64,000 nt of DNA from Alkalispirochaeta sp. (GCA_965601925.1 OZ271854.1:768001-832000); one strand, 5' to 3'. Counted from the first letter of the stretch, positions 46,328-64,000 are shown. Translations and numbers: made by a program. The notes: generated from the sequence alone by a model not told the origin.

Positions 46328-46351
46328 CGAGTTTGTAGGAAGGACGCAGAG

Positions 46352-47743: not shown

Positions 47744-47880
47744 CAGCTCATAGGCCCGCTACCGGCCCGACGAGGGCCGTTTGTGCCGCGCTCAAACTGC
47801 CCGCGGGCGGGCTGTGCGGGAGCAATAGGTGCCGACACGATCGGCAAACACTTCCATTTTGATTGAGAGGAGCTGTCCCC

Positions 47881-48843
47881 ATGTTGGACAAGAACGTGTA
47901 CCAAAGCGCCGCGACCTTACCGAGCAGCGGCGGACAACGAACGCGCGCACTGTACCGCAGCCGCGGCGTCGCAGCCTTCGTTGCATTGTTGTGTCTGGTC
48001 GCCGCGACCGGCGCGCTGTGTGCGCAAGAGGCCGCCGACGACCAGTCGTCCGAACCACCGCAGGGCTGGTTTTTCGGCCTCGGAGCGGTGGGACTGGCCA
48101 ACATCGAAGACGGGCCGCGTGCGGGACTCCAGGGGCGCGTCTGGTACCAACATCCGCTGTTCCACCGCACCGGATCGCTTTGGGACCCCGCGCGCATCGA
48201 GGTTGGCCTCGCCAATCGTTGGACGCCGGTTTCTAACGAGGTGACCGCGTCGGTATACTTTGAGCCGATCGCCGTCTTCGACGTGACCGCCAGCGTGACC
48301 TTTCAGACGCAATACGACCAGTTGCTGGACGCAACAGGCTACTATCGGCTCACATCGTACGATGAAGATCCGACCGACGAGATCGACGAACGCTATACCA
48401 CGCAATCCGGCCTCGTATATCGCGTAGCGCCGCGCGTGAAGGCGGCGTTTGCCGGCTTTATCGCCGCGCATACCGTGCAGATATCGTATGTGGACTACGG
48501 CGCCGTCTCGGACGACTCCGACGACTTCGATTACTACTTGGACGCCCCTGCAGGCATCTCCGAGGTCTTGAACGAACGCGACATGTGGATTCGCAACAAC
48601 ACGGTGGTGCTCTATCAGGTGACCGACGAACTGAATCTGGGACTAAACAGCGTGGCCGACACGGTGCCGGACGCCGATCGAACCAACTACCGCCTCTCGT
48701 TGATCGGGCTCTACGACCGCCCCTTGCGTAACGACTGGAACCTCGGGCTGGTCGTGGTCACCGGCGCATACCTGTCGCACCGCTGGCTGGAAGGCGAACC
48801 GGACCTTACCGTTGTCGTCGAGTTCAGCCGCCCATTACGATGA
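47881..48843 (+). CDS. Putative outer-membrane beta-barrel protein
   Basis: Signal peptide; alternating amphipathic strands rich in Y/W; terminal strand VVVEFSRP. Confidence 0.55.
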   Translation: MLDKNVYQSAATLPSSGGQRTRALYRSRGVAAFVALLCLVAATGALCAQEAADDQSSEPPQGWFFGLGAVGLANIEDGPRAGLQGRVWYQHPLFHRTGSLWDPARIEVGLANRWTPVSNEVTASVYFEPIAVFDVTASVTFQTQYDQLLDATGYYRLTSYDEDPTDEIDERYTTQSGLVYRVAPRVKAAFAGFIAAHTVQISYVDYGAVSDDSDDFDYYLDAPAGISEVLNERDMWIRNNTVVLYQVTDELNLGLNSVADTVPDADRTNYRLSLIGLYDRPLRNDWNLGLVVVTGAYLSHRWLEGEPDLTVVVEFSRPLR

Positions 48844-48964
48844 AGGTGGCCTTCGTTCTATGCCGGGACCGCCGGCAGTGTGCGGAAGAAGGCGGGTAGA
48901 CGAAGTGATGCGTTGCGTTAGGGCTCGTGTCTATGGCGTGAGCGCCCGCTTTCACTCGACGCCT

Positions 48965-49675
48965 CTACGCACTCCCGTCCGGCCATCCGTCGCGTATCTC
49001 GCTCCCATCCCCCGATGTGCTGAAATCGTTCCGTTCCGCAAGACCCGAAACGAACGTGGTGCCGTTCACGTCGAGGTTATAGAGCTTGCTTTCGGTAATG
49101 ATCGTGCTTTCCATCGCAAGGTCGCGGAGCCGCGCCCCTCTCAGGTCGCAGCGGTGGAAGAGTGTTTTGAGTAGGGTTGCCTCGGACAAGTCGCTCTCTT
49201 GCATGAAGACGTCTGAGAACGCGGCGCGCGTCAAATCGGCCCCGACCAGCGCAGTTGCATCCAAGTGGCCGCCCCGGCACTCAGTTTTGTGCCACCTGCT
49301 GTCGGTAAGATCGGCAGAATCGAAGCGGCACCCCCGCAAGCCGCTGCCGGAGAGGTCGAGGTGACGCCCTTGTACCCGTGCAAAGTCGCAATCGACGAGG
49401 CGCATATCCTGCGCTCGGACGTCGGTCATATCGGCTCCGGTGAAGTTGAGGTTTGTGCCGACTACTCCCTCAAACCGAGCGCCGCTCAGGTTTGCACGCT
49501 CGAACGAGACGTCGTCCAAAACTGCCAGGTCGAAGATCAATCCGGAGAGATCCAGGCCCGAGAAATCTACGTGAGAGAATAGCGGGTTCCTTTTGGGACT
49601 GTGGTTCTTGGTCCACCGGTCGTGTCGATCGAGGGCCGCGGCGATCGCCGTTCGGGTTGCTCGTGTCGTGTCCAT
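48965..49675 (-). CDS. Pentapeptide repeat protein
   Basis: ANLSG ARFEG, ADMTD, ADLTD, ADLTR, CDLRG repeats. Confidence 0.88.
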   Translation of the reverse strand: MDTTRATRTAIAAALDRHDRWTKNHSPKRNPLFSHVDFSGLDLSGLIFDLAVLDDVSFERANLSGARFEGVVGTNLNFTGADMTDVRAQDMRLVDCDFARVQGRHLDLSGSGLRGCRFDSADLTDSRWHKTECRGGHLDATALVGADLTRAAFSDVFMQESDLSEATLLKTLFHRCDLRGARLRDLAMESTIITESKLYNLDVNGTTFVSGLAERNDFSTSGDGSEIRDGWPDGSA

Positions 49676-49838
49676 CTTCCTCGGCCCGAAAAGCCGGCAG
49701 CCCCTCCTTGCATGACCGCGAATGCGGCGACGCCTCAAGCTCGCTATCGACTGCGCCGCACCCTTGCATGACGCGCTGACAACCGCACCCGTCAGGATTG
49801 CCGGCGTACGTTAGCGATTGACGCTCGGCCGGCCTATC

Positions 49839-50369
49839 TCAGGGCAGACGGTCGATCAAATCCAGCCGTTGCACGCACGGATGCCGCGCCTTGACCAAGC
49901 CCAACCGGTGCAGCCGTTTCATGATGATCAGGCGGTTTTTCACTCGTCGGAGCTCGCGTATCGTGTCGATCGGCAGTGTTTGCCATGCTCGCGCAAGTTC
50001 TTCGGCCTCGTCGATCGACAGGGGGAGGTCCTGCGCCCACGCGATGATGCGATCGGGATTTAGAACATCGCGGTCGCTATCGGGCCCCAGCCGTTCTATC
50101 GCTTTTAGGCGCGTGTACATTTCGGAGTATCGAAACAACTCCGAATCCTGCCGGTGGCGCGTGGATAGGATCGCGTAACACCGTACGGGAACCTCGATCC
50201 ACTGCACCTCCGGCGCCTCTTCCGGGCGTGCAAGCTTTGCGTTTGCGTACGCAAGCTCCGCCAGCCCGAGCCAGTTGAAATCCTGCGAGGCGGCATCGGC
50301 GGCGCCAATCCAATCCAGCACCTCGGCCGGTGGTACGCCCAGAACGTCGCGGAACGTGGACGGGTTCAT
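49839..50369 (-). CDS. Hypothetical protein (putative immunity by context)
   Basis: Protein-like helical ORF inside the array; no family recognised. Confidence 0.5.
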   Translation of the reverse strand: MNPSTFRDVLGVPPAEVLDWIGAADAASQDFNWLGLAELAYANAKLARPEEAPEVQWIEVPVRCYAILSTRHRQDSELFRYSEMYTRLKAIERLGPDSDRDVLNPDRIIAWAQDLPLSIDEAEELARAWQTLPIDTIRELRRVKNRLIIMKRLHRLGLVKARHPCVQRLDLIDRLP

Positions 50370-50372
50370 CGT

Positions 50373-50459
50373 CTACACCGTATCGTGTAATCGACGGTGG
50401 CCAAAAGCCAACTCACGCGCCGAACGGTGCGCCTCTTCGTTCTCAATATTCAGGGGCAT
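50373..50459 (-). pseudogene. Truncated VapB (Rv0623-like RHH) antitoxin
   Basis: GGAGG SD followed by MPLNIENEEAHRSARELA, then an unrelated tail and stop at 28 aa; no toxin gene follows. Confidence 0.6.
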
Positions 50460-50620
50460 AGTCCCTCCTAAAAGAAAAACCTCCTCCTGGGAGGAGGATG
50501 CCGCATCGTATTCGCGCCGTCAATGTGAGACTTCCGCCGGCGACTCGCGGTCCATCCCGAACCGACCTCGAACCATGCCACCGGCTTGTATGAGTGCTTA
50601 TCGTTTTCTATGATCGCGCC

Positions 50621-51304
50621 ATGGCGAAACCGTATTTCCAGCGCTACAATGAACTGGCCGACGCGTTGGAGCGTGCCTATCACACGGAAGTCGTTGAGAG
50701 AACTCCTGCGATGGTCGAGAGGAAATCGGCGGCCCCGCGAGGGTTTCGTAAGCTGGTCGATGAAAAGAGCTATGCGATTCCCGAAGACTACCTGTCGATT
50801 CTTGAGATCCCTAACACCCTTGCGCTCCGTTTCTTCTACGACATCGATGAGGCGCACCGGGGCGCCGGTGAGTTCAAAATCAGGTCGTTCTACTCCGCGC
50901 TCACCTCGAACAAAGATCCCAAGCTCTCCAACACCTCGATGCACAGCGAAGAGGACATCGAGATTCTGAAACACTTCAGGATTATCGACGAGCATCCGTT
51001 TTCCGGAGACTTCAAGCTGGCGGCGTTCTACAAAAAGCCCGGCGCCTCGCCGCCGGCGATACCGCAGATCTACTTTTACGACCGCGGCACGTACTACCCG
51101 ATGAACCTCGACTACTTCGGTTACTTGGACGCCGTGTTGGACCTGGCCGGGATCGCCAACTGGCAGTACCTCTTTTGCGACGTAAATCTTCGCACCGCGG
51201 AGTATCAGCACATCCACGAGGATCTGAAGCGCGGTATCGAAGCGGTCGCGATGCTCTTTCCCGACAAGGACCTCTCACGCTACGAGCAGTTGTTGGCGAA
51301 GTGA
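50621..51304 (+). CDS. SUKH/SMI1-like putative immunity protein
   Basis: IPEDY, GEFKI, FRIID, IYFYD, MNLDYFGYL...GIANWQY shared with the 55.5, 58.0, 59.3 and 60.8 kb paralogs. Confidence 0.6.
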   Translation: MAKPYFQRYNELADALERAYHTEVVERTPAMVERKSAAPRGFRKLVDEKSYAIPEDYLSILEIPNTLALRFFYDIDEAHRGAGEFKIRSFYSALTSNKDPKLSNTSMHSEEDIEILKHFRIIDEHPFSGDFKLAAFYKKPGASPPAIPQIYFYDRGTYYPMNLDYFGYLDAVLDLAGIANWQYLFCDVNLRTAEYQHIHEDLKRGIEAVAMLFPDKDLSRYEQLLAK

Positions 51305-51461
51305 CGTCGATCCGTGGGGCAAAACCCGTCCGTGTCCGTCGATGTGCGATATGCTCGCCGCGGTAGGGCTGCTTCTCGGCCGGCGGCATCGAGCGAATCG
51401 TTCCGAGCTGCAGTAGATTGGTAGTGTCGGATCGATATCACAACGGAGAGATGCAACCACG

Positions 51462-52130
51462 ATGAAAGCGTTATCTGCATTGAAAGCTGAGCTGGCGAAC
51501 CTGAAGGTAGCGAAACAGGGAAAAATCTGGCCCGAGGAACGGCCGGAAGTCTGGCTCGATTATGTCCAAGAGCTGGGAATAACCCCGCAAGACTATCCCC
51601 AGCTTTTGGAAATTGTACGAGAGTCCGACCTGGAAGGTGCGTACGAAGGGTGCTCTCCTGAAGAGTGCATTCCGGTTCATGCGTGGCGGGCGATCGCTCA
51701 ACTCAAACAGCCGGATGCCGTTCGAGATCTGTATGAGGTGCTGATCGATGAAAAAAATGAAGAGGCCTTCTGGTTCAAGATAGAGTTTCCGACCGTCATG
51801 CAGACGATCGGTCCCGATGCGATACCCCTTTTGTCTGCGCTTCTTCACGATCACGATTCCGACTGGGGATACAAAATGCTTCTCGTAGAATCGTTACTGC
51901 CGTTTGCGGCGAGCGATCAAACCCATCGTTCGGCGGTCATCCGGAGCGTGCATGACGTCCTGCGGGACTACCAGAATCATGACCCCGAGTATATCGGCGC
52001 GATCATCAAAGAGATCCGGAAGATACATCCGAAAGAGATCTCTGAGACCGTTGTCACGATCATGAAGAATGACGGCTATGATCTGTCCGGTCTGGAGCGT
52101 GACGAGGACGTCTGGCTGTATATCGAATAG
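51462..52130 (+). CDS. DUF1186-like helical repeat protein
   Basis: W.DY..LGIT, PVHAWRAIAQL, W...EFP.V...IGP.AIP.L. Confidence 0.55.
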   Translation: MKALSALKAELANLKVAKQGKIWPEERPEVWLDYVQELGITPQDYPQLLEIVRESDLEGAYEGCSPEECIPVHAWRAIAQLKQPDAVRDLYEVLIDEKNEEAFWFKIEFPTVMQTIGPDAIPLLSALLHDHDSDWGYKMLLVESLLPFAASDQTHRSAVIRSVHDVLRDYQNHDPEYIGAIIKEIRKIHPKEISETVVTIMKNDGYDLSGLERDEDVWLYIE

Positions 52131-52179
52131 CGTTCTTGGCCTCGGCGCGGAGCGTCCTCTTCGATCGAGGTTGAACGTC

Positions 52180-52956
52180 TCACCGGGTAATCTCCACCGT
52201 GCCCTTGGCCGCGAGCTCGTCCAAGCCGCGCACCCGTTTCGGCTCGTCGGCTGCTTCGTCGTGGAACGACCCGAGATCGAGATGGCGCAACTTCGGCAAC
52301 GCCAACAACGGCGTGAGGTCTTCCAGGGCGCGGCATCCGTCCAGAATCAGCTCGGCAAGCTCCCCGAATGCGGTAATCGCACCGATGTCGACCAGGTCGG
52401 TACAGTCGGAGAGGTCCAAGTAGTTCAGCCGCTTCATCGGAACAAGGTCGTCCAGGGTGCGTAACCCAGCCAGCGTCAACTCCAGCTCTTCCATATTGAC
52501 CAGCGCCGACAAATAGCGCGTGTCGTGGGCGATCTCGTCGCCGACGATCTTGAGCATCCGCAACTGCGGCAGGTTCACGATCGTCTCGAAGGTGACAAAG
52601 CCACCGGCCACCAAGTGCAGCGACGGGACGCTCGCCAAGAGCTCGATCGGACCGATATCGGTGTCGACCGGTAGTGTCTCGACCGAGACGTACTCGACGT
52701 GGTGCACCAGCGGCCACCAGATCGGCGCGGGCTGGCCGGCGATGACGTTTGTAGCCACCTCCTCCCACAGCTCGGTGGCGCATGCACGGTGGTAGGAAGG
52801 CCACCGGCTGAGCTCCGGGTGCGCCAGTACGTAGGCGGTCGCTTCGCGCTGCCGGCGGGCGTCCTGCACACGCACCGTATCGATCAACGGCCGCCAGTTG
52901 CGCTTGGAAGACTTGCGCGCCAAGATCGCGTCGATCTGAGTATGGAGATCGTTCAT
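52180..52956 (-). CDS. Leucine-rich repeat protein
   Basis: LRMLKI, MEELEL, LNYLDLSDC, LAELILDGC, LRHLDL. Confidence 0.8.
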   Translation of the reverse strand: MNDLHTQIDAILARKSSKRNWRPLIDTVRVQDARRQREATAYVLAHPELSRWPSYHRACATELWEEVATNVIAGQPAPIWWPLVHHVEYVSVETLPVDTDIGPIELLASVPSLHLVAGGFVTFETIVNLPQLRMLKIVGDEIAHDTRYLSALVNMEELELTLAGLRTLDDLVPMKRLNYLDLSDCTDLVDIGAITAFGELAELILDGCRALEDLTPLLALPKLRHLDLGSFHDEAADEPKRVRGLDELAAKGTVEITR

Positions 52957-53120
52957 TCATTACTCCGTTGCGATGAGCGAGCCGCCACGTGTGCGGTACG
53001 CCCGAGCGCCGGTTTGATCAACACGCCGGCGTCGGTCGACTCGAACACCACCTCCGTCTCGGGCTGCAGGTCGAAACGGTCGCGCAGTTTTGGGCTTGTT
53101 CTCCCAGCCACCGTCTCCGA
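52953..53120 (-). pseudogene. Degenerate AbrB/MazE-type antitoxin
   Basis: PKLRDRFDLQPETEVVFESTDAGVLIKP resembles the SpoVT/AbrB fold; N-terminal strand eroded; stop overlaps the LRR ATG. Confidence 0.6.
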
Positions 53121-53138
53121 TAAGCGTGACGCGGACAC

Positions 53139-53523
53139 ATGACCCAACAGGAATTGTTAACCAAGTTTACCAGTTTTTCGCCACATTGACCTCGACGACG
53201 ATTGGCCCGACTACATCGGCGAGCTCGGTATTACGGACGCCGACGCGCGTATGATCGCGGAGCTCCTGCGCGAGAGCGATCTCAACTTGGTCAGCATCGC
53301 GCATACGTCTGAAAGAAATTACCCCTTGCATCTATGGCGGACGTTGGCACAAACGAGAGAGGCTCGCTATCTCGACGTGCTATTCGATCTCCTGGTCGAC
53401 GAGAAACATGAAGAGGCGTCGTGGTTTCGGACAGAGTTCCCGCTGATCACTTCGGCCGGTCCGCTATCCCATTCATTGAAAAACACCTCCTTGGACGTGG
53501 TTCCTCATTGACGTTCAACAGCC
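53139..53523 (+). pseudogene. Frameshifted, truncated paralog of the 51462-52130 gene
   Basis: MTQQELLTKFTSF / HIDLDDDWPDYIGELGIT...PLHLWRTLAQ...DEKHEEASWFRTEFPLI / HFGRSAIPFI across two frameshifts. Confidence 0.7.
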
Positions 53524-54174
53524 TCAATAAAACCGCGCCAGGTCAAAACCCATCCGTTTGGAGAGCTCATAGTAAGATTCGTCTGGGTCCAGACCGGCGG
53601 CCGCAAAGACTTCGGCTCTGTGGTCCGAGAACCGCAGATCGTATCGGTTCAGGTTCCGCAACTCCTTGTCGACCAAAACCGGGTTGTGGATATCATCCTT
53701 TCGTCCCATTGCGTACAAGATGTACTCCGCAAGAAACACGGTGGGGATGGTCGCCGGGGTTACATCGATCGCTTCAACCTCTTCCAACCCCATCCCGGCC
53801 ATGGGAATTTTCAACTCGCCTTTGATCAACTGTGCTTCGCTGATCGTCTTTATGGACAACGCCTCGGGAAACTCCAACTCGTGTGGATCGACCTGCGTGA
53901 AGCCCACCGTGGCGAACAGCCCGTCGACGAGAAACCCAAAGGGAATGAACACTCCCGGGATAACCGTGCCGGTGAAATCGGGCAACGCTCCGGCGCTCGT
54001 CTCGGCGTAGATCTCCACTAAGGCTACGCCTTCGGGCCACCTGCTCAACGGGTTGTCGGGCCGGATCAGCCCCGCCTTCACGCACTGGTCTTGGATGTTC
54101 AGCATCACCCGTCCAAAGGCGAACTCGTTCGGTGCGATTTGGACGGAAAAGAGGTCGCCCGGTTTCGGTTTCAC
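53524..54174 (-). CDS. Imm26-like immunity protein
   Basis: N-terminal KPKPGDLFSVQI....FAFGRV motif; GGAG SD. Confidence 0.65.
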   Translation of the reverse strand: MKPKPGDLFSVQIAPNEFAFGRVMLNIQDQCVKAGLIRPDNPLSRWPEGVALVEIYAETSAGALPDFTGTVIPGVFIPFGFLVDGLFATVGFTQVDPHELEFPEALSIKTISEAQLIKGELKIPMAGMGLEEVEAIDVTPATIPTVFLAEYILYAMGRKDDIHNPVLVDKELRNLNRYDLRFSDHRAEVFAAAGLDPDESYYELSKRMGFDLARFY

Positions 54175-54197
54175 GACTGATAGTCTCCCTTTTATCG

Positions 54198-55508
54198 TTA
54201 CGGCGTGTTGTAGCCGAACCAGTCTGCAAGGGGCCGGCCGTGGTTAAGGAAATCCCAGAAGCTTTGCGGTTCGAATATTTCGCGCATCTCGTGGTCCCAA
54301 TCGACGGTCGACGGGTCGGCGTCGTCTTTGCTCTGTCGGTGGAAATGGCGGCCGTTCCCGCTGCCGTCGTTGTAGAACTCGAGCAGGTCCAGGAAATCGT
54401 AGTCCACCGGGGTGTTCTGTTCGGCGACGACATCGTTCATGTGGGTCATCACCGAAAGATGCCGATTGGGCAGGATTGCGTTGGCGGCGTTTTGCCAGCC
54501 CCAGGCGTGGTTCAAGAGGCCGAAGCCGTTGTGGACGCGGTAGAGGGCGGCGATCGAGGCGGGGACACGCCAGTGTTCTTTCGCCGGAGCTTCGCCCAGG
54601 CGCGGGTCGTCGGTCGGCGGCGCGCCGACCAAGAGCGTTGTGGAGGAATACGCTCCCTCGTAGTGGCCGGCGTTGAGATTCTCTACCGCGTACAACAGAT
54701 AGTCATTACCGTCTACGCGCAGCGCCAGCACGCAGATCAAGCGATCGAGTAAGGCGTCCAGAAAGGGCGCCGCGTGCCGCTCCACCGGCTGAAAGACCGC
54801 CGTAACCAGTTGGTCAAAACCAAGCCCCGCCAACTCCCGCCAATGGAAGTCGTCCGGCGCATTATCCAGTGGGGCGACTTGGACCGCATCCGGTTCGGAC
54901 TCCGGAAAGGCGGCGGCAACCTCCAGTGCGATCACGCGCCAGCCGTGGTCCAGTACGAAGCGGTGCAGGCGCTCCGATTTTTGCGTCGAGTAATCCTGCG
55001 CGGTAAGCTCGTCGTATTCTCGGCGAGCCGCCTCGTCCAGCTGCGCCTCGAAGCGCTCGGCCGTCCACCACAGGCGCCGAGAGCGGCTGTGGACCGAGTG
55101 TCCCTTTTGATACTCCACGACGCGCGCGGAGGCTTGCCCAAACCGCAGGTCTTCGGAGTCTGCGGCGGCATCGCCCGGAGCGGCAAGCGTGCGCTGCTTC
55201 TCCTCGCGCGCACCTTCGAGCTCCTCGCGCGACAGGGCGCGAATCTCTTCCTCGTAGGCGAGGTGACGCCGATAGAGCTCGATCGAGGGCGCCTGGTCGC
55301 GCTGTTCGTACCACCAGTGGCCCAGGAGCCACCGCACGCTCTTTTCGGCCGGCGCTTCGGCCTTCTCTTGCGCCGGAATCTCGACGGTGGTGGCTCTGCC
55401 GAACGTCTCAACCTCCACCGTCCAGGTGTCGCCGGAGACCGCCACCAGCTTGGCCTCGAATCCGTTGAAGGCGCCGCCTGTTATCCGAAATACCGATCCT
55501 ATCTCCAT
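54198..55508 (-). CDS. NusG-type KOW domain fused to a C-terminal SUKH/SMI1-KNR4 domain
   Basis: IGSVFRITGGAFNGFEA...VEVETFGRATTVEI; VPASIAALYRVHNG...LEFYNDGSGN...VDWDHE...SFWDFL. Confidence 0.7.
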   Translation of the reverse strand: MEIGSVFRITGGAFNGFEAKLVAVSGDTWTVEVETFGRATTVEIPAQEKAEAPAEKSVRWLLGHWWYEQRDQAPSIELYRRHLAYEEEIRALSREELEGAREEKQRTLAAPGDAAADSEDLRFGQASARVVEYQKGHSVHSRSRRLWWTAERFEAQLDEAARREYDELTAQDYSTQKSERLHRFVLDHGWRVIALEVAAAFPESEPDAVQVAPLDNAPDDFHWRELAGLGFDQLVTAVFQPVERHAAPFLDALLDRLICVLALRVDGNDYLLYAVENLNAGHYEGAYSSTTLLVGAPPTDDPRLGEAPAKEHWRVPASIAALYRVHNGFGLLNHAWGWQNAANAILPNRHLSVMTHMNDVVAEQNTPVDYDFLDLLEFYNDGSGNGRHFHRQSKDDADPSTVDWDHEMREIFEPQSFWDFLNHGRPLADWFGYNTP

Positions 55509-55517
55509 GTAACTCTC

Positions 55518-56393
55518 CTATCGTGAGCTCGTGCGCCCGGTTTCGCGATAGCGCGCTTCGAACGCGGCAAAGTGTTCTTGGTGATGATCAAAATCCAAAA
55601 AGGGAAATGACCCTGGCAGTAGCGTTATGCACCGGTGTAGGTATTCGTGGATCAAGTCCAGACGATCAAACGGCGTGTCGGTGACCGGTTCAAAACCCCG
55701 CAAGCGCTCGTCGACGCGCGTGCCCACGTGCAACGACCAGGTGAGATAGAGCTGATCCCTATTCTTCGCCACGATCGTCTGCGGGTCGATGTAGAAGTAC
55801 TGCCAACACCGCACCATCGCCGACGCGGCCATCGCCGTGAAGTACTCTTCAAACGACGTGAACGGCAGCCGGTACACAAAGCCGCTGTCGTAGAAATAGA
55901 ACTCGGTGGGAAACGCCTCGGAGTCGATCTTCACACAACCGAACTGCGGCGTGTACTCCGGGTCGTTGTAGGCGGTCGTGCTTTCGATCCAGCGCATATC
56001 GGTTGGGATCTCGGCACGACGTTCCAGTCCGTGTTGCGCAAACTTCCGGGTGGCCTTATCCCAGAACTCGACGGGATACAGAAACGTATCCAGGATACCG
56101 TTGATGTACGTTCCGCCCGATACCACTCCTTCGTCGGGCGTTTGCGACCTTCGGTTCCATCTGGTTTTGAAACTTCCCAGATAGAACAGATCGCGTTGAG
56201 CATCGGGAAACTCGATTCCCGCCTCGTCTCTAATCGTTGCGATGCGCGAATCGATTTCGGTTTCAAACAACTCCGTCTTGCCCGCCAGGTACTTCTTCAG
56301 CTTTTTGTGCGAGGCTTTCTGCAACTCGATTCCAACCGACTCGTTGGTTGCCCCTTCAACGAAATCATACAGTAGTTGGATTACGTTACGCAC
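55518..56393 (-). CDS. SUKH/SMI1-like putative immunity protein
   Basis: GIEFPD, GGTYI, FYFYDSG..Y.L...FEEY....WQYFY similar to the 50621 gene. Confidence 0.55.
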   Translation of the reverse strand: MRNVIQLLYDFVEGATNESVGIELQKASHKKLKKYLAGKTELFETEIDSRIATIRDEAGIEFPDAQRDLFYLGSFKTRWNRRSQTPDEGVVSGGTYINGILDTFLYPVEFWDKATRKFAQHGLERRAEIPTDMRWIESTTAYNDPEYTPQFGCVKIDSEAFPTEFYFYDSGFVYRLPFTSFEEYFTAMAASAMVRCWQYFYIDPQTIVAKNRDQLYLTWSLHVGTRVDERLRGFEPVTDTPFDRLDLIHEYLHRCITLLPGSFPFLDFDHHQEHFAAFEARYRETGRTSSR

Positions 56394-56418
56394 GCGAACT
56401 GGTCCCCCACACAGTGTA

Positions 56419-56769
56419 TCACCCCGGCCCATCCAACAACGCTTCAAAGTCGGCGCAGATCTCGGCATCGTACCCTTCGGCCCGGTAGGATTGGTGAAGC
56501 CGACGCGCACACGCGACTTGGTCTTCGACCGATACGTCGCCGAGGGGCGATACCTCTACCCTGAACTTGAAAAAGAGAAATCCATCCTCTTCTCGCGTGC
56601 GCACCGCGTCGTGATCCTCGTTCTGCGCAACCTGAATCCAGTTGCGTTGCCAATCGAACGAGCGCCGCGTGCGCCGCACAAAGCCGTCCAATCGCGCCAT
56701 GCGGTTCAGGAGCTCATTCAATGAGATCGCCGCGTCGACCATCACCAAGAATTGGCGCTCGTAGTCCAT
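56419..56769 (-). CDS. Hypothetical protein (putative immunity)
   Basis: NEDHD...DGFLFF.F.VEV and CADFE.LL; co-oriented with downstream immunity-like genes. Confidence 0.5.
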   Translation of the reverse strand: MDYERQFLVMVDAAISLNELLNRMARLDGFVRRTRRSFDWQRNWIQVAQNEDHDAVRTREEDGFLFFKFRVEVSPLGDVSVEDQVACARRLHQSYRAEGYDAEICADFEALLDGPG

Positions 56770-57044
56770 GGGAGGATCGTCCCCTGTTCGTGTGCTCTTG
56801 CAAACCATTTGCGTATTCTCGAGGTAGTTTAGCAGATACTTCGGTCTCGAAGTGCGAACTCTGTAGGGTACGTTCCGTGCCGAGTTTCTTCTCTATCCGG
56901 AGCTGGGAGCCGCGTCGCGTCGGGGAGTTATCTTTTTTTCCTCGTGCCTCGCACAATGACGGGGTCGGTGCTCGAGGTTGCCGGGGATATCCACCAGGAG
57001 TACACTGAGGTTCTAAGGGCCCTGGGTCCGGAGTGATGAACTGA

Positions 57045-57830
57045 ATGAAACATACGCATCGCGTCTCAAACCACGTAACCCCTGAGATGCATAATGATTT
57101 TGCCCGGGCCGGTATTATATTCGGTCCGGGCTTCGACGCATTTGACATCACCGAAGACGATGAGGCGTGGCCACGCGTGCGTGAGTTGATCGCGAAGCAC
57201 AAGTGCGTAGACTTTGAATCCACCAAATTTACTAAGAAAGAGATCGGTACAGCGCCGAACGCGGACGTAACGCCAAGCTGGCATCACGGGTACCCCCAGC
57301 CGGAGGACGACTTCGGATATCTCGAAGCAACCTTCGATCTGAGCGATCACTGCCGTGCGTGCGGTATCGGCAAGCGCCAGATCGCGCCGTTCAGGTTCAA
57401 GAAGGAGCCGGCGTGGGGCAAGCGATCGGTGCTGCAGCTCAACTGGGTGTTTGACGAGTACTTCACCACCCCGGAGACGTGGGACGCGGTGTTCCGGCCC
57501 CGGGGGATCGAAAGCATGCCGGTCGTGCATCACCGCAAGAGCCACGAGTTGTCGACGGTTGTGCAACTCGCGGTACCGGACCGCGTGGATCTCGTCGGCA
57601 TCGAAGCGTACCCGAGCGAGGTTTGCGAGAAATGCGGGCGGAGGAAGTACCTGCCGATTAGGCTGGGCTTCTTCCCAAGCCCCGAACCGTCAACGTGCGC
57701 GCTGGCGAAGTCGAACCAGTACTTCGGCAGCGGCGGCAGCGCGTTCAATTCGGTGATCGCGGACAACGCGATGGTCAATGTCGTGCTGGAGGCGAAGCTG
57801 AAGGGCGTCTCGTTCTGGCCTTGCGGCTGA
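57045..57830 (+). CDS. Cys-containing hypothetical protein (putative immunity)
   Basis: GYPQPEDDFGY, CRACGIG.RQ.APFR, QLNWVFDE, CEKCGR.KY. Confidence 0.6.
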   Translation: MKHTHRVSNHVTPEMHNDFARAGIIFGPGFDAFDITEDDEAWPRVRELIAKHKCVDFESTKFTKKEIGTAPNADVTPSWHHGYPQPEDDFGYLEATFDLSDHCRACGIGKRQIAPFRFKKEPAWGKRSVLQLNWVFDEYFTTPETWDAVFRPRGIESMPVVHHRKSHELSTVVQLAVPDRVDLVGIEAYPSEVCEKCGRRKYLPIRLGFFPSPEPSTCALAKSNQYFGSGGSAFNSVIADNAMVNVVLEAKLKGVSFWPCG

Positions 57831-57839
57831 AAGCTTTGC

Positions 57840-58002
57840 CGGACAGACCGAGCGTGGTGCTCCCGACCGGCGCCTCTACCAGCGTGAAGAGCGCGGCGAG
57901 TTGATCGGCAGAAAACACTGTAAAGCGGTCCCGAAAATAGTGGCTGAAGTGGGCGTAGATACCGTGAAACGAATAGTCGTCGGGACCGTCGCGAACGTGC
58001 AC
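57840..58002 (-). pseudogene. Internal gene fragment
   Basis: DDYSFHGIYAHFSHYFRDRF..FSADQLAALFTLVE is protein-like but lacks a credible start and degenerates into antisense of the 57045 gene. Confidence 0.35.
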
Positions 58003-58003
58003 C

Positions 58004-58618
58004 CTATCCGCTGATCCGCACCGAGTCGTGGAGCTCGTAGAAGCCTTCCTTGGTGAACTCGGGAAACAGCCGATGCATGTTGGCGATGATCCGCTCGGAG
58101 ATGCCGCCTTCGGGGTTCAAGATGATCCGTTGCCAGTACGCCACGCCTTTGGTGTACTTCAGCATCTGGAGGTAGCCCTTGAAGTCGAGGTTGAGCGCCT
58201 TCGTGTCACCGTCAAAAAACGTAATGAAGAAACCCCGCTCCGGCTTATCCACATAGAACCCAACGCCGGCTTCGGGATAGAAATAGTCCACGACGGTGAA
58301 GTTCCGCATCACCGGGAACTCATCAGGATGGAAGTCTACGTCGCCAATGAGCACCTGCTCGATTGGCAGGATGTTGAACGTTCCCTCGAGCTCGATTGGG
58401 CTGTGTTGGTTGGTCTTCCACGTCACCTTCCACCGCTCGATCGCCGAGTAAAAGCGCACCAATTCCGCATCGAACGTGAGCGCTTGATCCACGCGGCCCT
58501 CTGCGTTCTCGATCAGTGTGTTTTCGATGAGGTCGATGGTATCTCGGTGTGAACGCATAGCCCTATTTAGGGGCAGATCGTATTCTTGCACATACTCATC
58601 GAACACCTGTTTGCTCAT
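58004..58618 (-). CDS. SUKH/SMI1-like putative immunity protein, copy A1
   Basis: ELVRFY, EGTFNILPIE, VVDYFYPE, LNLDFKGYL..L.YTKG..YWQ; GGAGG SD. Confidence 0.65.
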   Translation of the reverse strand: MSKQVFDEYVQEYDLPLNRAMRSHRDTIDLIENTLIENAEGRVDQALTFDAELVRFYSAIERWKVTWKTNQHSPIELEGTFNILPIEQVLIGDVDFHPDEFPVMRNFTVVDYFYPEAGVGFYVDKPERGFFITFFDGDTKALNLDFKGYLQMLKYTKGVAYWQRIILNPEGGISERIIANMHRLFPEFTKEGFYELHDSVRISG

Positions 58619-59240
58619 GATTCCTCCGTCGGTTGTATCGCATCCCGTCTCAGCGTTCGTCCCGGTCGGCGTCTTCCGCCGATGCTTTGCGTCCCCTTTA
58701 CGCGCCCGCGCCTCACCGCTCGTAGCGCTGCATGCTCGCCGGGTGGTCCGACGGCGCGAGAAGCCGCCGCGTCTCCACCAGCTTGCCGGGGTGGTTGACG
58801 TCATAGGCGCTGTCTGTGGCGACGGTGGTCCACTTGTAGGTGTTGGCGCCGAAGAGCTTGAAAAAGCGGCTTGCGGTGATCGTTAACTCTGAATCGACCT
58901 CTTCCACAATCAAGCACTTGCCGTACTCCTTCCAGTCCTTCGGCGACCGGTCCGAGACAAAGCAGTGGTACAGCGCGGTGCCGTCGCTGGTCTGGTAGTG
59001 GTCGATGCGAAAGAGGAAGCGCTTGGTCGGCGGCTTCCTTTTGGCCGCCCGCTCGTAGTAGTCCGGTTCTTCGAGCGTTTTCAACGGAATCATGCCGAAC
59101 TTGTTTTTCACCTTTGGTGAGGCGAACCGGTTCATCGCCTCGAGCTTGCGGTTGTAGTCGTCCAGATCGGGCACGCGGTTCGCCGCGATCGCCGCCACCT
59201 CGGCCTCAAAGAAGCGGTCCAAAAAGTCGATTACGTTTTC
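58013..59240. repeat. Direct repeat unit 1 (about 1.2 kb)
   Basis: Matches 60849-62076 at a constant offset of 2836 bp. Confidence 0.92.
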
Positions 59241-59243
59241 CAT
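58713..59243 (-). CDS. Hypothetical protein, copy B1
   Basis: Duplicated at 61549-62082; SD present. Confidence 0.65.
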   Translation of the reverse strand: MENVIDFLDRFFEAEVAAIAANRVPDLDDYNRKLEAMNRFASPKVKNKFGMIPLKTLEEPDYYERAAKRKPPTKRFLFRIDHYQTSDGTALYHCFVSDRSPKDWKEYGKCLIVEEVDSELTITASRFFKLFGANTYKWTTVATDSAYDVNHPGKLVETRRLLAPSDHPASMQRYER

Positions 59244-59312
59244 CGTGGTTCCCCCTTGTGTGGTCGGCGTTCGGGCGCCCTTGCTCCTGCCCCGTCAATC
59301 ACGGCGCGCACG

Positions 59313-59939
59313 CTACCGATCGATCCGCACCGAGTCGTACATCTCGTAAAAGCCCTCGACCGTTACCTCGGGAAAGAGCGCGTGCATCTTCTCGATAACC
59401 GGGCTCGAGGTTTTCACGATCGGCTCGATGACACTCTTCTGCCAGTACGCCGCGCCCTTGGTGTACTTCAGCATCTCCAGATAGCCTTTAAAGTCAAGGT
59501 TGAGCTTATCGGTATGACCATCAAATTCATGGTAAAACAAGCCTTGTTCAGGTTTGTCTAAATAGAACCCAACACCGGCTTCGGGATAGAAATAGTCCAC
59601 GAGGGTGAAGTTCCGCATCACCGGGAACTCATCAGGATGGAAGTCTACGTCGCCGATGAGGACTTCCTCGATCGGCAGAATGTTGATCGTCCCTTCGATG
59701 TCGACGCCCAACTCGGGTTTGAGCGTCCATTTGACGGTCCAGCCCTTCAATGCGGCGTAAAACCGCTTCATTTCGTCGTCTAAGTTGAGCGCGGTATCTA
59801 CTCCGAGACCCTCGCCTCGAAATATTTTGAGATTGTTCTCGAAAGAACTGAACTTTTCTTCGTTTGCCATCTCCCATGCAAAGAGATGCTTGTTACAGTT
59901 TTCAGCGAAGTATTTTTTTAGCTCGGTCTTATCGATCAT
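59313..59939 (-). CDS. SUKH/SMI1-like putative immunity protein, divergent copy A3
   Basis: Same C-terminal motifs as A1/A2, divergent N-terminal half. Confidence 0.65.
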   Translation of the reverse strand: MIDKTELKKYFAENCNKHLFAWEMANEEKFSSFENNLKIFRGEGLGVDTALNLDDEMKRFYAALKGWTVKWTLKPELGVDIEGTINILPIEEVLIGDVDFHPDEFPVMRNFTLVDYFYPEAGVGFYLDKPEQGLFYHEFDGHTDKLNLDFKGYLEMLKYTKGAAYWQKSVIEPIVKTSSPVIEKMHALFPEVTVEGFYEMYDSVRIDR

Positions 59940-59974
59940 CTCTGGCTCCTCATACCCCGGTATCCCTCGCGCCG

Positions 59975-60023
59975 GTGCATTGCGGCACCGGTATGCTCCC
60001 AGCCTACCGGTGCCGCGATGCAC
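59975..60023. repeat. Strong inverted repeat (18/19-bp stem, 11-nt loop)
   Basis: GTGCATTGCGGCACCGGTA ... TACCGGTGCCGCGATGCAC between vapC and A3. Confidence 0.8.
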
Positions 60024-60040
60024 AACCGATGTTTGGGGAG

Positions 60041-60457
60041 CTATACGAAGGGATTGAGAACCTCAATCCCGCATTCTTCGAAGTCTTTCACGTTACCGGT
60101 CGCAACCGCCAGCAGATTTGTGCGGGCGATTGAGGCGATCTGTGCGTCCAACGCTGCCAGTGGTCGGCCCAACGCCCTACGGCGACCGACGATCTGCGGA
60201 TAGATCCGCGCTGATCGTTCGTCGAATGCGAGAATCCGTTGATCGAATCCTTGTCGTACGAATCGCTCGAATCGTTCCTCGAGGTTTCGACGGCGCTTGC
60301 CGTCCGGCAAAACCCACAAACCGTATCCGATCTCGGCGATCGTGATCGTCGAAATAAATAAGCCGCCGGCATCTTGTTGGTTGAGCCATTCTATGACCAC
60401 TGGATCGGGCGACCGGCTCATGACGGCCGACACGACGTTGGTATCGAGTAGCGTCAC
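60041..60457 (-). CDS. vapC: PIN-domain VapC toxin
   Basis: LLDTNVVS, STITIAEI..G, DAQIASIA, ATGNVKDF. Confidence 0.95.
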   Translation of the reverse strand: MTLLDTNVVSAVMSRSPDPVVIEWLNQQDAGGLFISTITIAEIGYGLWVLPDGKRRRNLEERFERFVRQGFDQRILAFDERSARIYPQIVGRRRALGRPLAALDAQIASIARTNLLAVATGNVKDFEECGIEVLNPFV

Positions 60458-60684
60458 GTATCGAATCCGACCGGCTCGTGCACCTCGCGCGGCGGCAACC
60501 GGAGCTCGACGCCGTCGTTTTCGAAACAGCTGAGCGCCAGGTCGCCGAGACGCTCAGGCGCGTTGACGGTATACGCGAGGATTTGCCGTACTTCCTCTTC
60601 CATCGACACTCCATGTTTCGCGGCGCGCATCCGGAGACGGCGATAGACCTCCGCATCGATCTTTCGAACACTCAGGCTGTGCAT
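60454..60684 (-). CDS. FitA-like ribbon-helix-helix antitoxin
   Basis: LSVRKID.EV...LR.RAAKHGVSMEEEVRQIL; 4-bp overlap with vapC. Confidence 0.9.
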   Translation of the reverse strand: MHSLSVRKIDAEVYRRLRMRAAKHGVSMEEEVRQILAYTVNAPERLGDLALSCFENDGVELRLPPREVHEPVGFDT

Positions 60685-60703
60685 CCGATCCTCCTAAGAC
60701 CAA

Positions 60704-60721
60704 TGATAGCGTGTGCTATCA
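60704..60721. promoter_or_regulatory. TA operator TGATAGC-N4-GCTATCA
   Basis: Palindrome upstream of the antitoxin; TGCTATCA is the half-site known for Neisseria FitAB. Confidence 0.65.
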
Positions 60722-60839
60722 CCGCCGGCAAGTGCCGGCACGACTGCTGAAGCGTCGCCGAACTGCGAGACGATCGGGGCCGGTCTTGTAGCGGCCTCGG
60801 CGCACATCGGTCCGGACCGTCAGCCGCGAACAGCTCACG

Positions 60840-61454
60840 CTACCGATCGATCCGCACCGAGTCGTAGAGCTCCAGAAACCCTTCCTTGGTGAACTCGGGA
60901 AACAGCCGCTGCATGTTGGCGATGATCCGCTCGGAGATGCCGCCTTCGGGGTTCAAAATGATTCGTTGCCAGTACGCAGCGCCCTTGGTGTACTTCATCA
61001 TCTGGAGGTAGCCCTTGAAATCCAGGTTGAGCGCCTTCGTGTCACCGTCAAAAAACGTAACGAAGAAACCCCGCTCCGGCCTATCCACATAGAACCCAAC
61101 GCCGGCTTCGGGATAGAAATAGTCCACGACGGTGAAGTTCCGCATCACCGGGAACTCATCGGGATGGAAGTCTACGTCGCCAATGAGCACCTGCTCGATT
61201 GGCAGGATGTTGAACGTTCCCTCGAGCTCGATTGGGCTGTGTTGGTTGGTCTTCCACGTCACCTTCCACCGCTCGATCGCCGAGTAAAAGCGCACCAATT
61301 CCGCATCGAACGTGAGCGCTTGATCCACGCGGCCCTCTGCGTTCTCGATCAGTGTGTTTTCGATGAGGTCGATGGTATCTCGGTGTGAACGCATAGCCCT
61401 ATTTAGGGGCAGATCGTATTCTTGCACATACTCATCGAACACCTGTTTGCTCAT
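60840..61454 (-). CDS. SUKH/SMI1-like putative immunity protein, copy A2
   Basis: Near-identical to A1 with C-terminal substitutions. Confidence 0.65.
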   Translation of the reverse strand: MSKQVFDEYVQEYDLPLNRAMRSHRDTIDLIENTLIENAEGRVDQALTFDAELVRFYSAIERWKVTWKTNQHSPIELEGTFNILPIEQVLIGDVDFHPDEFPVMRNFTVVDYFYPEAGVGFYVDRPERGFFVTFFDGDTKALNLDFKGYLQMMKYTKGAAYWQRIILNPEGGISERIIANMQRLFPEFTKEGFLELYDSVRIDR

Positions 61455-62076
61455 GATTCCTCCGTCGGTTGTATCGCATCCCGTCTCAGCGTTCGTCCCG
61501 GTCGGCGTCTTCCGCCGATGCTTTGCGTCCCCTTTACGCGCCCGCGCCTCACCGCTCGTAGCGCTGCATGCTCGCCGGGTGGTCCGACGGCGCGAGAAGC
61601 CGCCGCGTCTCCACCAGCTTGCCGGGGTGGTTGACGTCATAGGCGCTGTCTGTGGCGACGGTGGTCCACTTGTAGGTGTTGGCGCCGAAGAGCTTGAAAA
61701 AGCGGCTTGCGGTGATCGTTAACTCTGAATCGACCTCTTCCACAATCAAGCACTTGCCGTACTCCTTCCAGTCCTTCGGCGACCGGTCCGAGACAAAGCA
61801 GTGGTACAGCGCGGTGCCGTCGCTGGTCTGGTAGTGGTCGATGCGAAAGAGGAAGCGCTTGGTCGGCGGCTTCCTTTTGGCCGCCCGCTCGTAGTAGTCC
61901 GGTTCTTCGAGCGTTTTCAACGGAATCATGCCGAACTTGTTTTTCACCTTTGGCGATACGAACCGGTTCATCGCCTCGAGCTTGCTGTTGTAGTCGTCTA
62001 TGTCCGGTAGGCCGTCGGCCACAATCGCCGCTACCTCGGCTTCAAAAAAGCGGTCCAAAAAGTCGATCACAGGGTC
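60849..62076. repeat. Direct repeat unit 2 (about 1.2 kb)
   Basis: Matches 58013-59240. Confidence 0.92.
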
Positions 62077-62082
62077 CATCAT
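61549..62082 (-). CDS. Hypothetical protein, copy B2
   Basis: Identical to B1 except within the N-terminal 45 aa. Confidence 0.65.
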   Translation of the reverse strand: MMDPVIDFLDRFFEAEVAAIVADGLPDIDDYNSKLEAMNRFVSPKVKNKFGMIPLKTLEEPDYYERAAKRKPPTKRFLFRIDHYQTSDGTALYHCFVSDRSPKDWKEYGKCLIVEEVDSELTITASRFFKLFGANTYKWTTVATDSAYDVNHPGKLVETRRLLAPSDHPASMQRYER

Positions 62083-62315
62083 CCTCTCCTTGTTCGGTCG
62101 CCGATACGCGGCTCATACGGGTTCTTGGTAGTCTCGTGACCTTATCATAGCGCGATTCGTCTCACCATTCGCGTGGTGCAGATGAGATTGACGCACGACC
62201 GCGTCACAATACGATGAGAACGCGAAGCCAAGACCGACAGCCTGACCACTGCGGCGAAGGCGGCAGCTGCTATGGAGTAGCGGTGGCGACGGCGCGTGGA
62301 CGCTCAACGCACGCG

Positions 62316-62897
62316 CTACGTGCGGCGGGCCCATGCGACGACATCTTCGGGAACCAACTTGGGCTCCACCAGAATGAACTTTGCCTCCGCCCCCTCAAAA
62401 AAGAGCTTGTCGGTCGGCCGCAGCAAGCTGTTGACGACTACACGCCGGACGATCGCTACGGTAGCGCCGGCATCTCGCGCCAAGAGTTCGCGTACCGTGT
62501 CCCGCATCTTCAGAAATTGCGGCGGTGCCTCGATCGGTTCTTCTTGATCGTCGTAGTCCCGTGACGAGACGTAGTAGACGTGGTGCGGACGAACGACAGA
62601 ATCGATCCCCGCCTCACGTATCCGCTCTACTCTGACCAGCGCGCTGAGCTCGGGCCGCTCTTCGATCCATCGACCAACCGCCTCGATCAAACCGGCGTAA
62701 GGCTCGACGTATTCGGGCGCGAGCTTACTATCGAAGTGCCTTACGATGATCGACCTACCGGCCGGAGCATCGGGCGCGAAGTACAACGTGCCGAGTGTAC
62801 TCGCTAAAAATCTCTTGAGGCCCAGCTCGTGCTTTCGGGCGGCGAAGGTGTGATCGAGCTCACTCTTTTGCTCGTTCCGTCCGTGAGCCGGTTGCAC
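62316..62897 (-). CDS. Hypothetical protein; start uncertain
   Basis: Protein-like 193-aa ORF; no family recognised. Confidence 0.5.
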   Translation of the reverse strand: MQPAHGRNEQKSELDHTFAARKHELGLKRFLASTLGTLYFAPDAPAGRSIIVRHFDSKLAPEYVEPYAGLIEAVGRWIEERPELSALVRVERIREAGIDSVVRPHHVYYVSSRDYDDQEEPIEAPPQFLKMRDTVRELLARDAGATVAIVRRVVVNSLLRPTDKLFFEGAEAKFILVEPKLVPEDVVAWARRT

Positions 62898-63055: not shown

Positions 63056-63775
63056 TTACATATTGACGTCGGCGGTTGCGGGCATTGTGATAATTTTCGG
63101 GCAACTTGCGGCGCTGAGTGAATCGATCGTCGTCACGAGTTGCACGACGTCGTGAACCGGAATGAGCGACGCGTCCGTTTCGCGCAACACTTCATCTCGC
63201 GAGACCGAGAGTCCGTGCTCACTCGCCATGTACCCGAGGTTCATGAGGGTGACCGAAATTCCGTCTCCTCTGACGATCTCCCGAACGGCGTTCGTCAGAC
63301 CCCGCATCGCTCCTTTGCTCGCGGAAAACGCGACTTCGCGGCCGTTATTGTGATCTTCTCCCCACGTAGAGCCGATGAATATCATCGTCCCGGAACTCGA
63401 CGCGCGGAGAAGCGGGATTGCCCCCTGCGTATGGAGTATAAGCGACAATACATTCGTCTCGATCAGTTTACGTGACTCGACGTGCGGAGAAGACGAGAAA
63501 TCGTACTCCTCGCTGAACGCCGTTTGCTCCCAGATACCGACGTTGTAGATAAAAAGATCAATCGCGGTTTCCCCGATACGATCAAAGACGACGCGGGTCG
63601 ATTCCTCAGGCTTAGAAAGGTCCGCCTCTATCCAGACGACGTCCCCAACGCCGCGATCAAGATACGCCGGTCTTGACCGTGACACGACAAACAGCCGCGT
63701 CTCTTTCTCCGATAGGCCCTCGGCAAGAGCCTGACCAAGGCCGCGAGACGCTCCGTATATCAGCACTGTCTTCAT
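63056..63775 (-). CDS. SDR family oxidoreductase (atypical, F in place of catalytic Y)
   Basis: GASRGLG, YNVGIWE, FSASK. Confidence 0.85.
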   Translation of the reverse strand: MKTVLIYGASRGLGQALAEGLSEKETRLFVVSRSRPAYLDRGVGDVVWIEADLSKPEESTRVVFDRIGETAIDLFIYNVGIWEQTAFSEEYDFSSSPHVESRKLIETNVLSLILHTQGAIPLLRASSSGTMIFIGSTWGEDHNNGREVAFSASKGAMRGLTNAVREIVRGDGISVTLMNLGYMASEHGLSVSRDEVLRETDASLIPVHDVVQLVTTIDSLSAASCPKIITMPATADVNM

Positions 63776-64000
63776 CGCGTCAATATAATACCGGCTCAGA
63801 TTACCGGGACAGTGTATTTGGTAGCGGTACAAGACGGCATCGAATTGATAGAATCGGTTAGGAAGTCACGAGCGACGTGCACATGGGACGGCTGGTTCCG
63901 GCCGATGGTATGCGGTATCATCACCGCACCATGAGTGGGATTTCGGCGCGATGTTGGAGAACGAGACGGTCGTGATGCCGCACTTGCTGCCACAGTAGCT

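Follow-up and report, generated by a model that had tools for sequence, protein, structure and literature searches.

A toxin-free patchwork of foreign genes in Alkalispirochaeta sp. that holds predicted orphan immunity genes against eCIS-type nucleases

Heterogeneous polyimmunity loci, and the linkage of SUKH immunity proteins with NucA nucleases and export by Photorhabdus virulence cassettes (PVC), have already been published (Zhang 2011, 2012); here and below, statements on the literature draw on parts of each source. Table 2 of PMC3482391 gives Tox-NucA with the motif 'GH, N, N, E', PVC export and SUKH immunity, and the same paper lists Imm26, leucine-rich repeat (LRR) and HEAT as immunity folds. 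It also remarks that Treponema denticola has immunity genes in excess, and reports loci of the extended kind from just four groups, the proteobacteria, bacteroidetes, firmicutes and actinobacteria. The structures 2prv (YobK), 3ffv, 2pag, 2icg and 3d5p are named as SUKH in PMC3113570, and orphan SUKH proteins of divergent sequence are reported to bind effectors and to neutralise them (10.1101/2025.05.03.651265). Most toxins associated with extracellular contractile injection systems (eCIS-associated toxins, EATs) have no immunity genes according to the sections of PMC8213781 used here, which call this lack beside antibacterial toxins a mystery and make no mention of orphan arrays. A literature search found no title or abstract on orphan arrays against eCIS toxins, although supplements could list the gene clade described below. 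The DNA analyzed here is a stretch of 64,000 nucleotides from Alkalispirochaeta sp. (GCA_965601925.1 OZ271854.1:768001-832000; hereafter the window), in which an island of small genes begins at position 48965. This island is probably a toxin-free patchwork of foreign genes, about nine of which likely encode immunity proteins against injected nucleases, chiefly nucleases of the NucA type carried by eCIS.

Coordinates are window positions, to which 768000 is added for the genome position, and features beyond the window are given as window equivalents (L001:4005-14700 corresponds to 64005-74700). The island covers about 26 kb and 37 open reading frames (ORFs), and its right end lies near genome position 842700 (74700), 10.7 kb past the window. 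Gene neighbourhood or family supports about nine of the 37 as predicted orphan immunity genes and about two more weakly. The immunity families represented are a SUKH-like clade (six copies), a family that we call C (two copies) and Tdi1, together with weak Imm26 and KOW-SUKH genes.

The SUKH-like clade is one family with the pattern W..GxF..WQY..LFP. Paralog 1 (50621..51304) is on the plus strand and paralogs 2 to 5 (55518..56393, 58004..58618, 59313..59939 and 60840..61454) are on the minus strand of the window, with paralog 6 beyond it (71722-72423). A profile of the clade finds exactly these six in the genome, has no match in 98 other genomes of the order, and is positive in three of 400 sampled genomes of the phylum; paralog 2 scores E 2e-54, with the gene itself in the alignment. 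The clade amounts to 313 representative proteins (clusters at 50% identity) at E <= 0.001, and the profile has no match among PDB sequences. Pfam SMI1_KNR4 matches five of 128 family members and none of the island copies. The structure model of 50621, the paralog that was modelled, has a pLDDT of 93 and its best fold matches are SUKH: VIA returns Knr4 5j1b (Z 4.8, root-mean-square deviation 5.1, 156 aligned), 2icg (4.7), 2prv (4.5), 3d5p (4.2), 2pag (4.0) and Syd (3.7), and SUKH or Tdi1-type structures mostly fill the top ten, the named members of which are 5j1b, 2icg, 2prv, 3d5p, 2pag, 3ffv, 6itw and 8g0k (Z 3.2-4.8). We take 6itw to be of the Tdi1 type; its structure title says only Atu4351. 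Foldseek ranks 3d5p first (E 0.019). These fold matches are individually weak, but several of them are SUKH-defining structures. We read the six paralogs as a SUKH clade that is divergent and escapes Pfam.

In other genomes, clade genes stand directly behind one toxin domain, as seen in loci of Flavobacterium, Chryseobacterium, Aquimarina and Ruminiclostridium. In genome loci picked by their immunity gene, a clade gene comes directly after all 17 matches to the toxin profile at a spacing of -11 to +15 nt, six of these 17 being matches that had built the profile, and in 37 metagenome loci a clade gene lies next to 18 of 20 toxin matches. Since all of these loci had been chosen by the immunity gene, a reverse search was made through 251 Flavobacteriaceae genomes, where a clade gene follows four of six new toxin matches. 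The toxin domain conserves G-H, N, N and E (H, N, N, E are kept in 20 of 20 aligned rows), shows a weak Pfam match to Endonuclea_NS_2, and ends in a helix-hairpin-helix (HhH) tail. It is often borne on an eCIS-core (DUF4157/PVC) protein, with strong eCIS_core Pfam matches that include loci L014 and L047. Judged by sequence, the partner toxin is assigned to the Tox-NucA class with PVC export and SUKH immunity. Separately, an eCIS-core-motif NucA toxin and a SUKH-clade gene at L088:5827-10696 apparently sit on a small integrase-bearing mobile element.

In an Aquimarina genome (L047), a gene with 77% identity to paralog 4 (59313) follows a NucA-type toxin with an eCIS core at a distance of 7 nt. 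When 59313 was modelled with the L047 nuclease domain, the predicted complex scored 0.36 against 0.01 for the best control, and the runs have at least 56% of their contacts in common with a partner pLDDT of at least 85. Of 157 solved pairs, 116 pass the mark used for such scores, as do two of 215 mismatched pairs; passing scores of 0.60 or less account for just 18 of the 157 solved pairs yet for both mismatches. The complex is weak support for the pairing.

Family C is represented by 58713..59243 and 61549..62082, both on the minus strand. Its homologs lie behind a toxin cassette related to the clade's partner toxin: eight of 18 metagenome homologs, from loci largely related to each other, follow such cassettes or their remnants, as does L031:8097. 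Two of the eight are behind long cassettes that share an N-terminal part with full toxins and six are behind short remnants. The earlier note, made from the sequence alone, had described an orphan immunity array with candidate new immunity families among its unclassified ORFs. For 58713 and 61549 this holds by neighbourhood, their homologs lying directly behind toxin C-termini, and the SUKH-like paralogs have homologs so placed and resemble an immunity fold. Two further unclassified acidic ORFs of the island, L001:5310-5927 and L001:10996-11694, have a faint mutual likeness (E 0.03) and are possibly another family.

A second spirochaete carries the same families in one place. This is a Spirochaetales metagenome-assembled genome (MAG; L018, L057, L058, L076) of about 160 contigs, which has seven clade profile matches, six of them on a contig of 24.8 kb. 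The array there also contains repeated Tdi1, family C twice, Imm11, Imm22, LRR/DUF6892, WD40 and PIN genes, and a 3-kb duplication, and searches of the MAG found neither an eCIS core nor a toxin. Its clade copies branch apart from those of Alkalispirochaeta in the tree. Bacillota MAGs (L022, L026, L032) likewise have the clade within long arrays of small genes that look like immunity genes, with Tdi1 in L022 and L026. A search of 30 relatives, 16 from the same genus, did not find the island DNA itself except for one 80-bp match (E 8e-4).

The make-up of the array suggests how it was assembled. In a 48-row tree of 26 toxin-linked, 16 orphan and 6 island rows, picked from loci already collected, the six island copies need five changes, and starred branches force every one of these. 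A toxin-linked gene is the sister of 55518 (100/100) and another toxin-linked sister stands beside 59313 (100/96), while 50621 has its own branch. Six copies on five branches point to about five separate acquisitions and one local duplication. The duplication (57979-59269 versus 60810-62103, 95% identical) is a C+B module, of which 58004 and 58713 form copy 1 and 60840 and 61549 form copy 2; a metagenome scan with family B gave no match. At the amino-acid level, 60840 is 97% identical to 58004 and 61549 is 95% identical to 58713, with dN/dS of about 0.3 (0.35 for the SUKH pair and 0.29 for the family C pair). The module has an identical core of 792 bp with differences at both ends, and the paralogs have exact tracts of 51 bp and 31 bp in common, a pattern that would fit homologous recombination or gene conversion.

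We propose that the immunity genes were taken up separately from the toxin-immunity tails of other bacteria, with the toxins left behind, and that homologous or illegitimate recombination would then have reshuffled them, with no dedicated recombinase involved. Such reshuffling could have left the duplicated module with its identical core, the gene fragments and the frameshift. The resulting proteins would bind and block nuclease toxins from the phage-tail-like eCIS particles of other bacteria, and a toxin-antitoxin (TA) pair within the array may help keep the region. The earlier note had suggested a recombination-built immunity library in a lineage other than Bacteroidales, apparently assembled without a local recombinase. 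In outline this is supported; tyrosine recombinase matches occur at 3.33, 3.57 and 5.02 Mb and none near the island, where the only trace of a mobile element is a broken IS481 at the edge.

Several observations weigh against this proposal. About 20 of the 37 ORFs have no immunity evidence, and a short-chain dehydrogenase (SDR), a pentapeptide protein, the TA pair and broken genes are also present; expression of the array, and protection by it, are predictions. Of the 47 distinct clade genes in the genome loci (after six rows repeating one contig were dropped), a toxin precedes only 17, and in the metagenome loci it precedes only 18 of 56; many of the loci are close kin. Two of the six toxins from the reverse search stand without a clade gene, one being followed by another gene and one by none. 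The full-length Chryseobacterium toxin (L030) has no eCIS_core match, so for that group the delivery route is a supposition. Every fold Z-score is below 5 and Foldseek has no match at E <= 0.001, while the dN/dS estimates come from about 23 differences in each gene and may stem from selection in a donor. Finally, the island's orientation is mixed, whereas classical polyimmunity loci (PMC3482391) have one orientation and short gaps.

The alternative that best survives is that the island is neutral debris, a recombination sink in which immunity halves are over-represented because toxin halves kill on arrival, and which confers no protection. Signs of turnover would agree with this, namely partial HEAT, AbrB and DUF7674 genes and a Tdi1 gene with a frameshift, as would the unrelated SDR and TA cargo, the mixed orientation, and the absence of the island from all 16 same-genus genomes searched. 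It accounts poorly, however, for the arrival of one clade at a single site on five separate occasions, with none elsewhere in 5 Mb, for the intactness of all six clade copies, most of which have a Shine-Dalgarno-like upstream sequence, and for the second spirochaete with the same families in one array. We therefore consider debris unlikely, and continue to favor a collection of immunity genes directed at injected nucleases.

An anti-phage defence island composed of unrecognized systems appears very improbable. The TA pair and the many unclassified ORFs of a strain-specific island would be in keeping with it, but none of 34 island proteins matches PADLOC at E <= 0.001, and those families that can be classified have toxin-immunity contexts.

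It is also possible in principle that the genes provide cognate or back-up immunity to the genome's own toxins. The genome, one contig of 5.05 Mb that is 96.7% complete and has three FlaA genes, which mark it as a spirochaete, encodes three proteins of about 3100 aa that were overlooked in the first reading, all on the minus strand (genome 1338965-1348417, 4152466-4161678 and 4315336-4324689; L125-L127, at 1.34, 4.15 and 4.32 Mb). Their signal-peptide N-termini are near-identical and their C-terminal tips unrelated; a lipoprotein-like or small gene follows each of them, and two are trailed by orphan tip cassettes. We regard them as a candidate spirochaete polymorphic toxin system. A non-coding element of 165 bp occurs at six genomic sites (841411-841579, 1324451, 1329923, 4142861, 4151684 and 4265166), one copy being at the right end of the island (73411-73579) and four at points in the genome's own polymorphic arrays where an immunity gene gives way to the next cassette. 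Five of the six sites are thus at the island's right end or inside two of these arrays, and the element may mark recombination junctions or a shared origin. The existence of such candidate systems and the shared element favor the idea of own-toxin immunity. Nevertheless, the candidate toxins' neighbours are lipoproteins, and the sole match between these loci and the island is the signal peptide of a right-end lipoprotein; one tip is M23-peptidase-like, the other tips are without an NCBIfam match, and none matches the NucA profiles. We regard this explanation as scarcely credible.

Genome-wide searches found no eCIS_core match (the same search was positive in three of five control genomes), no Rhs core, no Phage_base_V (the VgrG domain), no match to either toxin profile or to the donor toxins, and no sheath or tube, with only an AAA match. 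No cognate toxin was found in the genome, in line with the earlier note's view of the array as lacking its toxins.

An integron cassette array of the CALIN kind (cluster of attC sites lacking an integrase), or a system like rAID (acquired interbacterial defence clusters that are associated with a recombinase), worked by a site-specific recombinase from elsewhere, is at best a very faint prospect and largely refuted: an integron integrase (IntI) does score above cut-off at genome 3568638, 2.7 Mb away, and small foreign ORFs with a TA pair are typical of cassettes, but a profile built from 11 attC-like repeats of this genome has no island match at E < 10, a generic attC scan gives one island site (background level, 0-3 per 26 kb), the genes abut or overlap in mixed orientation, and no intergenic repeat family was found in the island. 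As observations on the genome's integrons, attC-like repeats of about 125 bp belong to a chromosomal integron at 3548000-3569600, further attC clusters lie at 2160000-2202000 and 3734000-3739000, and several copies of a 1.8-kb insertion sequence are directly behind attC sites.

The island begins past a gene set of AcrB/TolC-like and outer-membrane genes and is bounded on the right by the broken IS481 (73834-74661). The left flank (43232-47743) contains an AcrB-like transporter and a TolC-like gene, for which the relatives' best matches fit a second paralog at genome 61436-66013. An empty insertion site in relatives was not established, as the AcrB/TolC matches there are orthologs of that other paralog and have no syntenic flank. 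A 136-kb short-read contig, from the same sample as the assembly (its likely source) and hence not independent support, covers flank and island unbroken over 45000-58103, and its depth is about doubled over the identical core of the duplication. Regional GC dips slightly, from 0.61-0.63 in the left flank to 0.56-0.61 in the island. Gene GC is 0.50-0.65 throughout except for one gene at 0.38, which looks like a recent arrival, and GC at third codon positions is mostly host-like, which argues against direct recent transfer from low-GC Flavobacteriaceae. Gaps between genes are -11 to 275 nt, and the genes fall into three blocks of mixed orientation, with a plus-strand block beyond the span first described. 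Rfam gives no match, a promoter scan is at chance level (4 versus 4.8), and no terminal direct repeat longer than 9 bp is present. A palindromic repeat of about 55 bp was seen at genome 840803-840859, in the island, and at 13 other intergenic sites genome-wide.

The earlier note had delimited the array at 48965-62897 and described about 17 small, mostly acidic, mostly minus-strand ORFs in 14 kb. The array and its strand bias stand; the count becomes 20 ORFs and one fragment (16 minus, 4 plus), and the right limit gives way to one about 10.7 kb past the window, with a sixth paralog. Acidity is only a modest enrichment: the isoelectric point lies below 5.6 for 10 of the 16 proteins measured in the window and for 24 of the 33 measured in the island, compared with 53% of 1698 genome ORFs of at least 300 aa. 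The content it named largely recurs in our results: the pentapeptide and LRR proteins, the gene fragments (HEAT, AbrB and DUF7674 pieces), a KOW-SUKH fusion, and the five SUKH-like paralogs in the window, borne out by profile and, for 50621, by fold model and fold comparison. The Imm26-like gene scores below the curated cut-off of its family, and for Imm5, which the note also mentioned, no match was seen. As it had said, no polymorphic toxin is evident in the array, the island having no match to a toxin profile or a Pfam polymorphic toxin; its only toxin belongs to a type II TA pair (FitAB, FitA/PIN), which was overlooked in the first reading.

About 20 of the 37 ORFs are unclassified, and Pfam names few of the genes: pentapeptide, LRR, weak HEAT, weak Imm26, FitA/PIN, SDR, Tdi1_C and DUF7674. 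PHROGs gives one weak KOW match among 29 proteins. At the left edge is the pentapeptide-repeat protein (48965..49675, minus; PF00805, E 2e-24), followed by a 176-aa ORF (49839..50369, minus) with no match in Pfam, NCBIfam, PADLOC, PHROGs or plasmids. Past paralog 1 are a HEAT-repeat-like protein (51462..52130, plus; HEAT_2, E 0.001, below cut-off), the LRR protein (52180..52956, minus; Pfam LRR, E 1e-7), which has weak matches in the second spirochaete array, and a fragment of an AbrB-type antitoxin without a toxin partner (52953..53147, minus; TIGR01439, E 0.025), 71% identical to a copy at genome 151618-151731. A fragment of a second HEAT-like paralog (53203..53511, plus) is 42% identical to 51462 across 88 aa. 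The weakly Imm26-like gene (53524..54174, minus) matches PF15428 over residues 4-59 only (E 5e-4, 20.7 bits versus a cut-off of 23.3), and the fusion (54198..55508, minus) joins a weak KOW N-terminus (KOW/NusG, E 0.0016-0.13) to a SUKH-like C-terminus, its atlas score being 0.94-0.95 to a cluster in which 33% of members carry SMI1_KNR4, although the fusion itself has no Pfam SUKH match. After paralog 2 comes a 116-aa ORF without matches (56419..56769, minus); plasmid tblastn gave no match for 49839, the Imm26-like gene, the KOW fusion or 56419.

Further right, a double-CxxCG protein (57045..57830, plus) is at best faintly Imm11 (PF07791, E 0.19), with one plasmid homolog that no toxin adjoins and no homolog in 151 Bacteroidota genomes. 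A start-less fragment of the DUF7674 gene located past the window (57838..57995, minus) has 77% nucleotide identity to genome 836878-837035. Between paralog 4 and the TA pair is a hairpin with 23-bp arms (59975..60023); the pair itself, on the minus strand, consists of a PIN/VapC toxin (60041-60457; PF01850, E 4e-12) and a FitA-like ribbon-helix-helix antitoxin (60454-60684; PF22513, E 1e-16; NF047863, E 5e-16). The module's second copy is followed by a 193-aa ORF with no significant matches (62316..62897, minus) and the SDR (63056..63775, minus; PF00106, E 7e-26). The island runs on through the window's last bases (63776..64000) into 16 more small ORFs, which include the frameshifted Tdi1 (about 65990-66550), a DUF7674 gene (68770-69138), a low-GC gene (69297-69680), paralog 6 and, at the right end, lipoprotein-like ORFs.

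The SUKH clade and family C, which annotation pipelines call hypothetical, are both defined by this locus. We tentatively suggest, at rather less than even confidence, that two distant spirochaetes without contractile particles independently hoard immunity against eCIS nucleases of Bacteroidota and Bacillota. If true, this would be the first genomic footprint of free eCIS particles killing across phyla often enough to select for orphan defence, and would add two unannotated immunity families, with probably more among the 20 unclassified ORFs. Orphan immunity in a bacterium without eCIS points to bacteria as victims of eCIS particles in nature. 59313 and the Aquimarina eCIS-core nuclease form a ready test pair, in view of the identity of 59313 to the cognate immunity gene.

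Among known systems, the island is like the polyimmunity loci of Zhang 2012 (PMC3482391) in having many unrelated immunity families, several SUKH versions, and immunity genes with no polymorphic toxin cassette between them. It differs in the TA pair and SDR inside it and in the lack of an adjacent XerC/D, and because its genes do not share a single orientation we file it as a variant of the heterogeneous polyimmunity locus, one apparently built without a recombinase in a lineage from which no extended loci were reported in 2012. The AID-like label (acquired interbacterial defence) of the earlier note applies loosely, to an orphan immunity array, and does not extend to the defining features of rAID. 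Like rAID-1 of Bacteroidales as described in 10.1101/471110, the island is an orphan array of tens of genes. Whereas rAID-1 has a 5' XerD-like recombinase, co-directional genes, GC of at most 41% and intergenic repeats, the island has neither the recombinase nor the repeats, is mixed in orientation and is higher in GC; the toxins matched are eCIS/PVC-type here and of the Bacteroidales type VI secretion system there. In common with the EATs of PMC8213781, some of which have an adjacent immunity gene, the partner toxins have a DUF4157/eCIS-core N-terminus and a C-terminal toxin, although, judged by the listed functions, Table 1 of that paper has no NucA nuclease among its 13 validated EATs. The published SUKH and Tox-NucA pairs with PVC export (PMC3113570, PMC3482391) agree in toxin motif, immunity superfamily and export route; unlike them, the island clade is missed by Pfam, has an HhH-tailed partner toxin, and occurs here as orphans. 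Set against these systems, the two immunity families, the spirochaete lineage and an orphan defence predicted to be aimed at eCIS-type cargo are apparently new.

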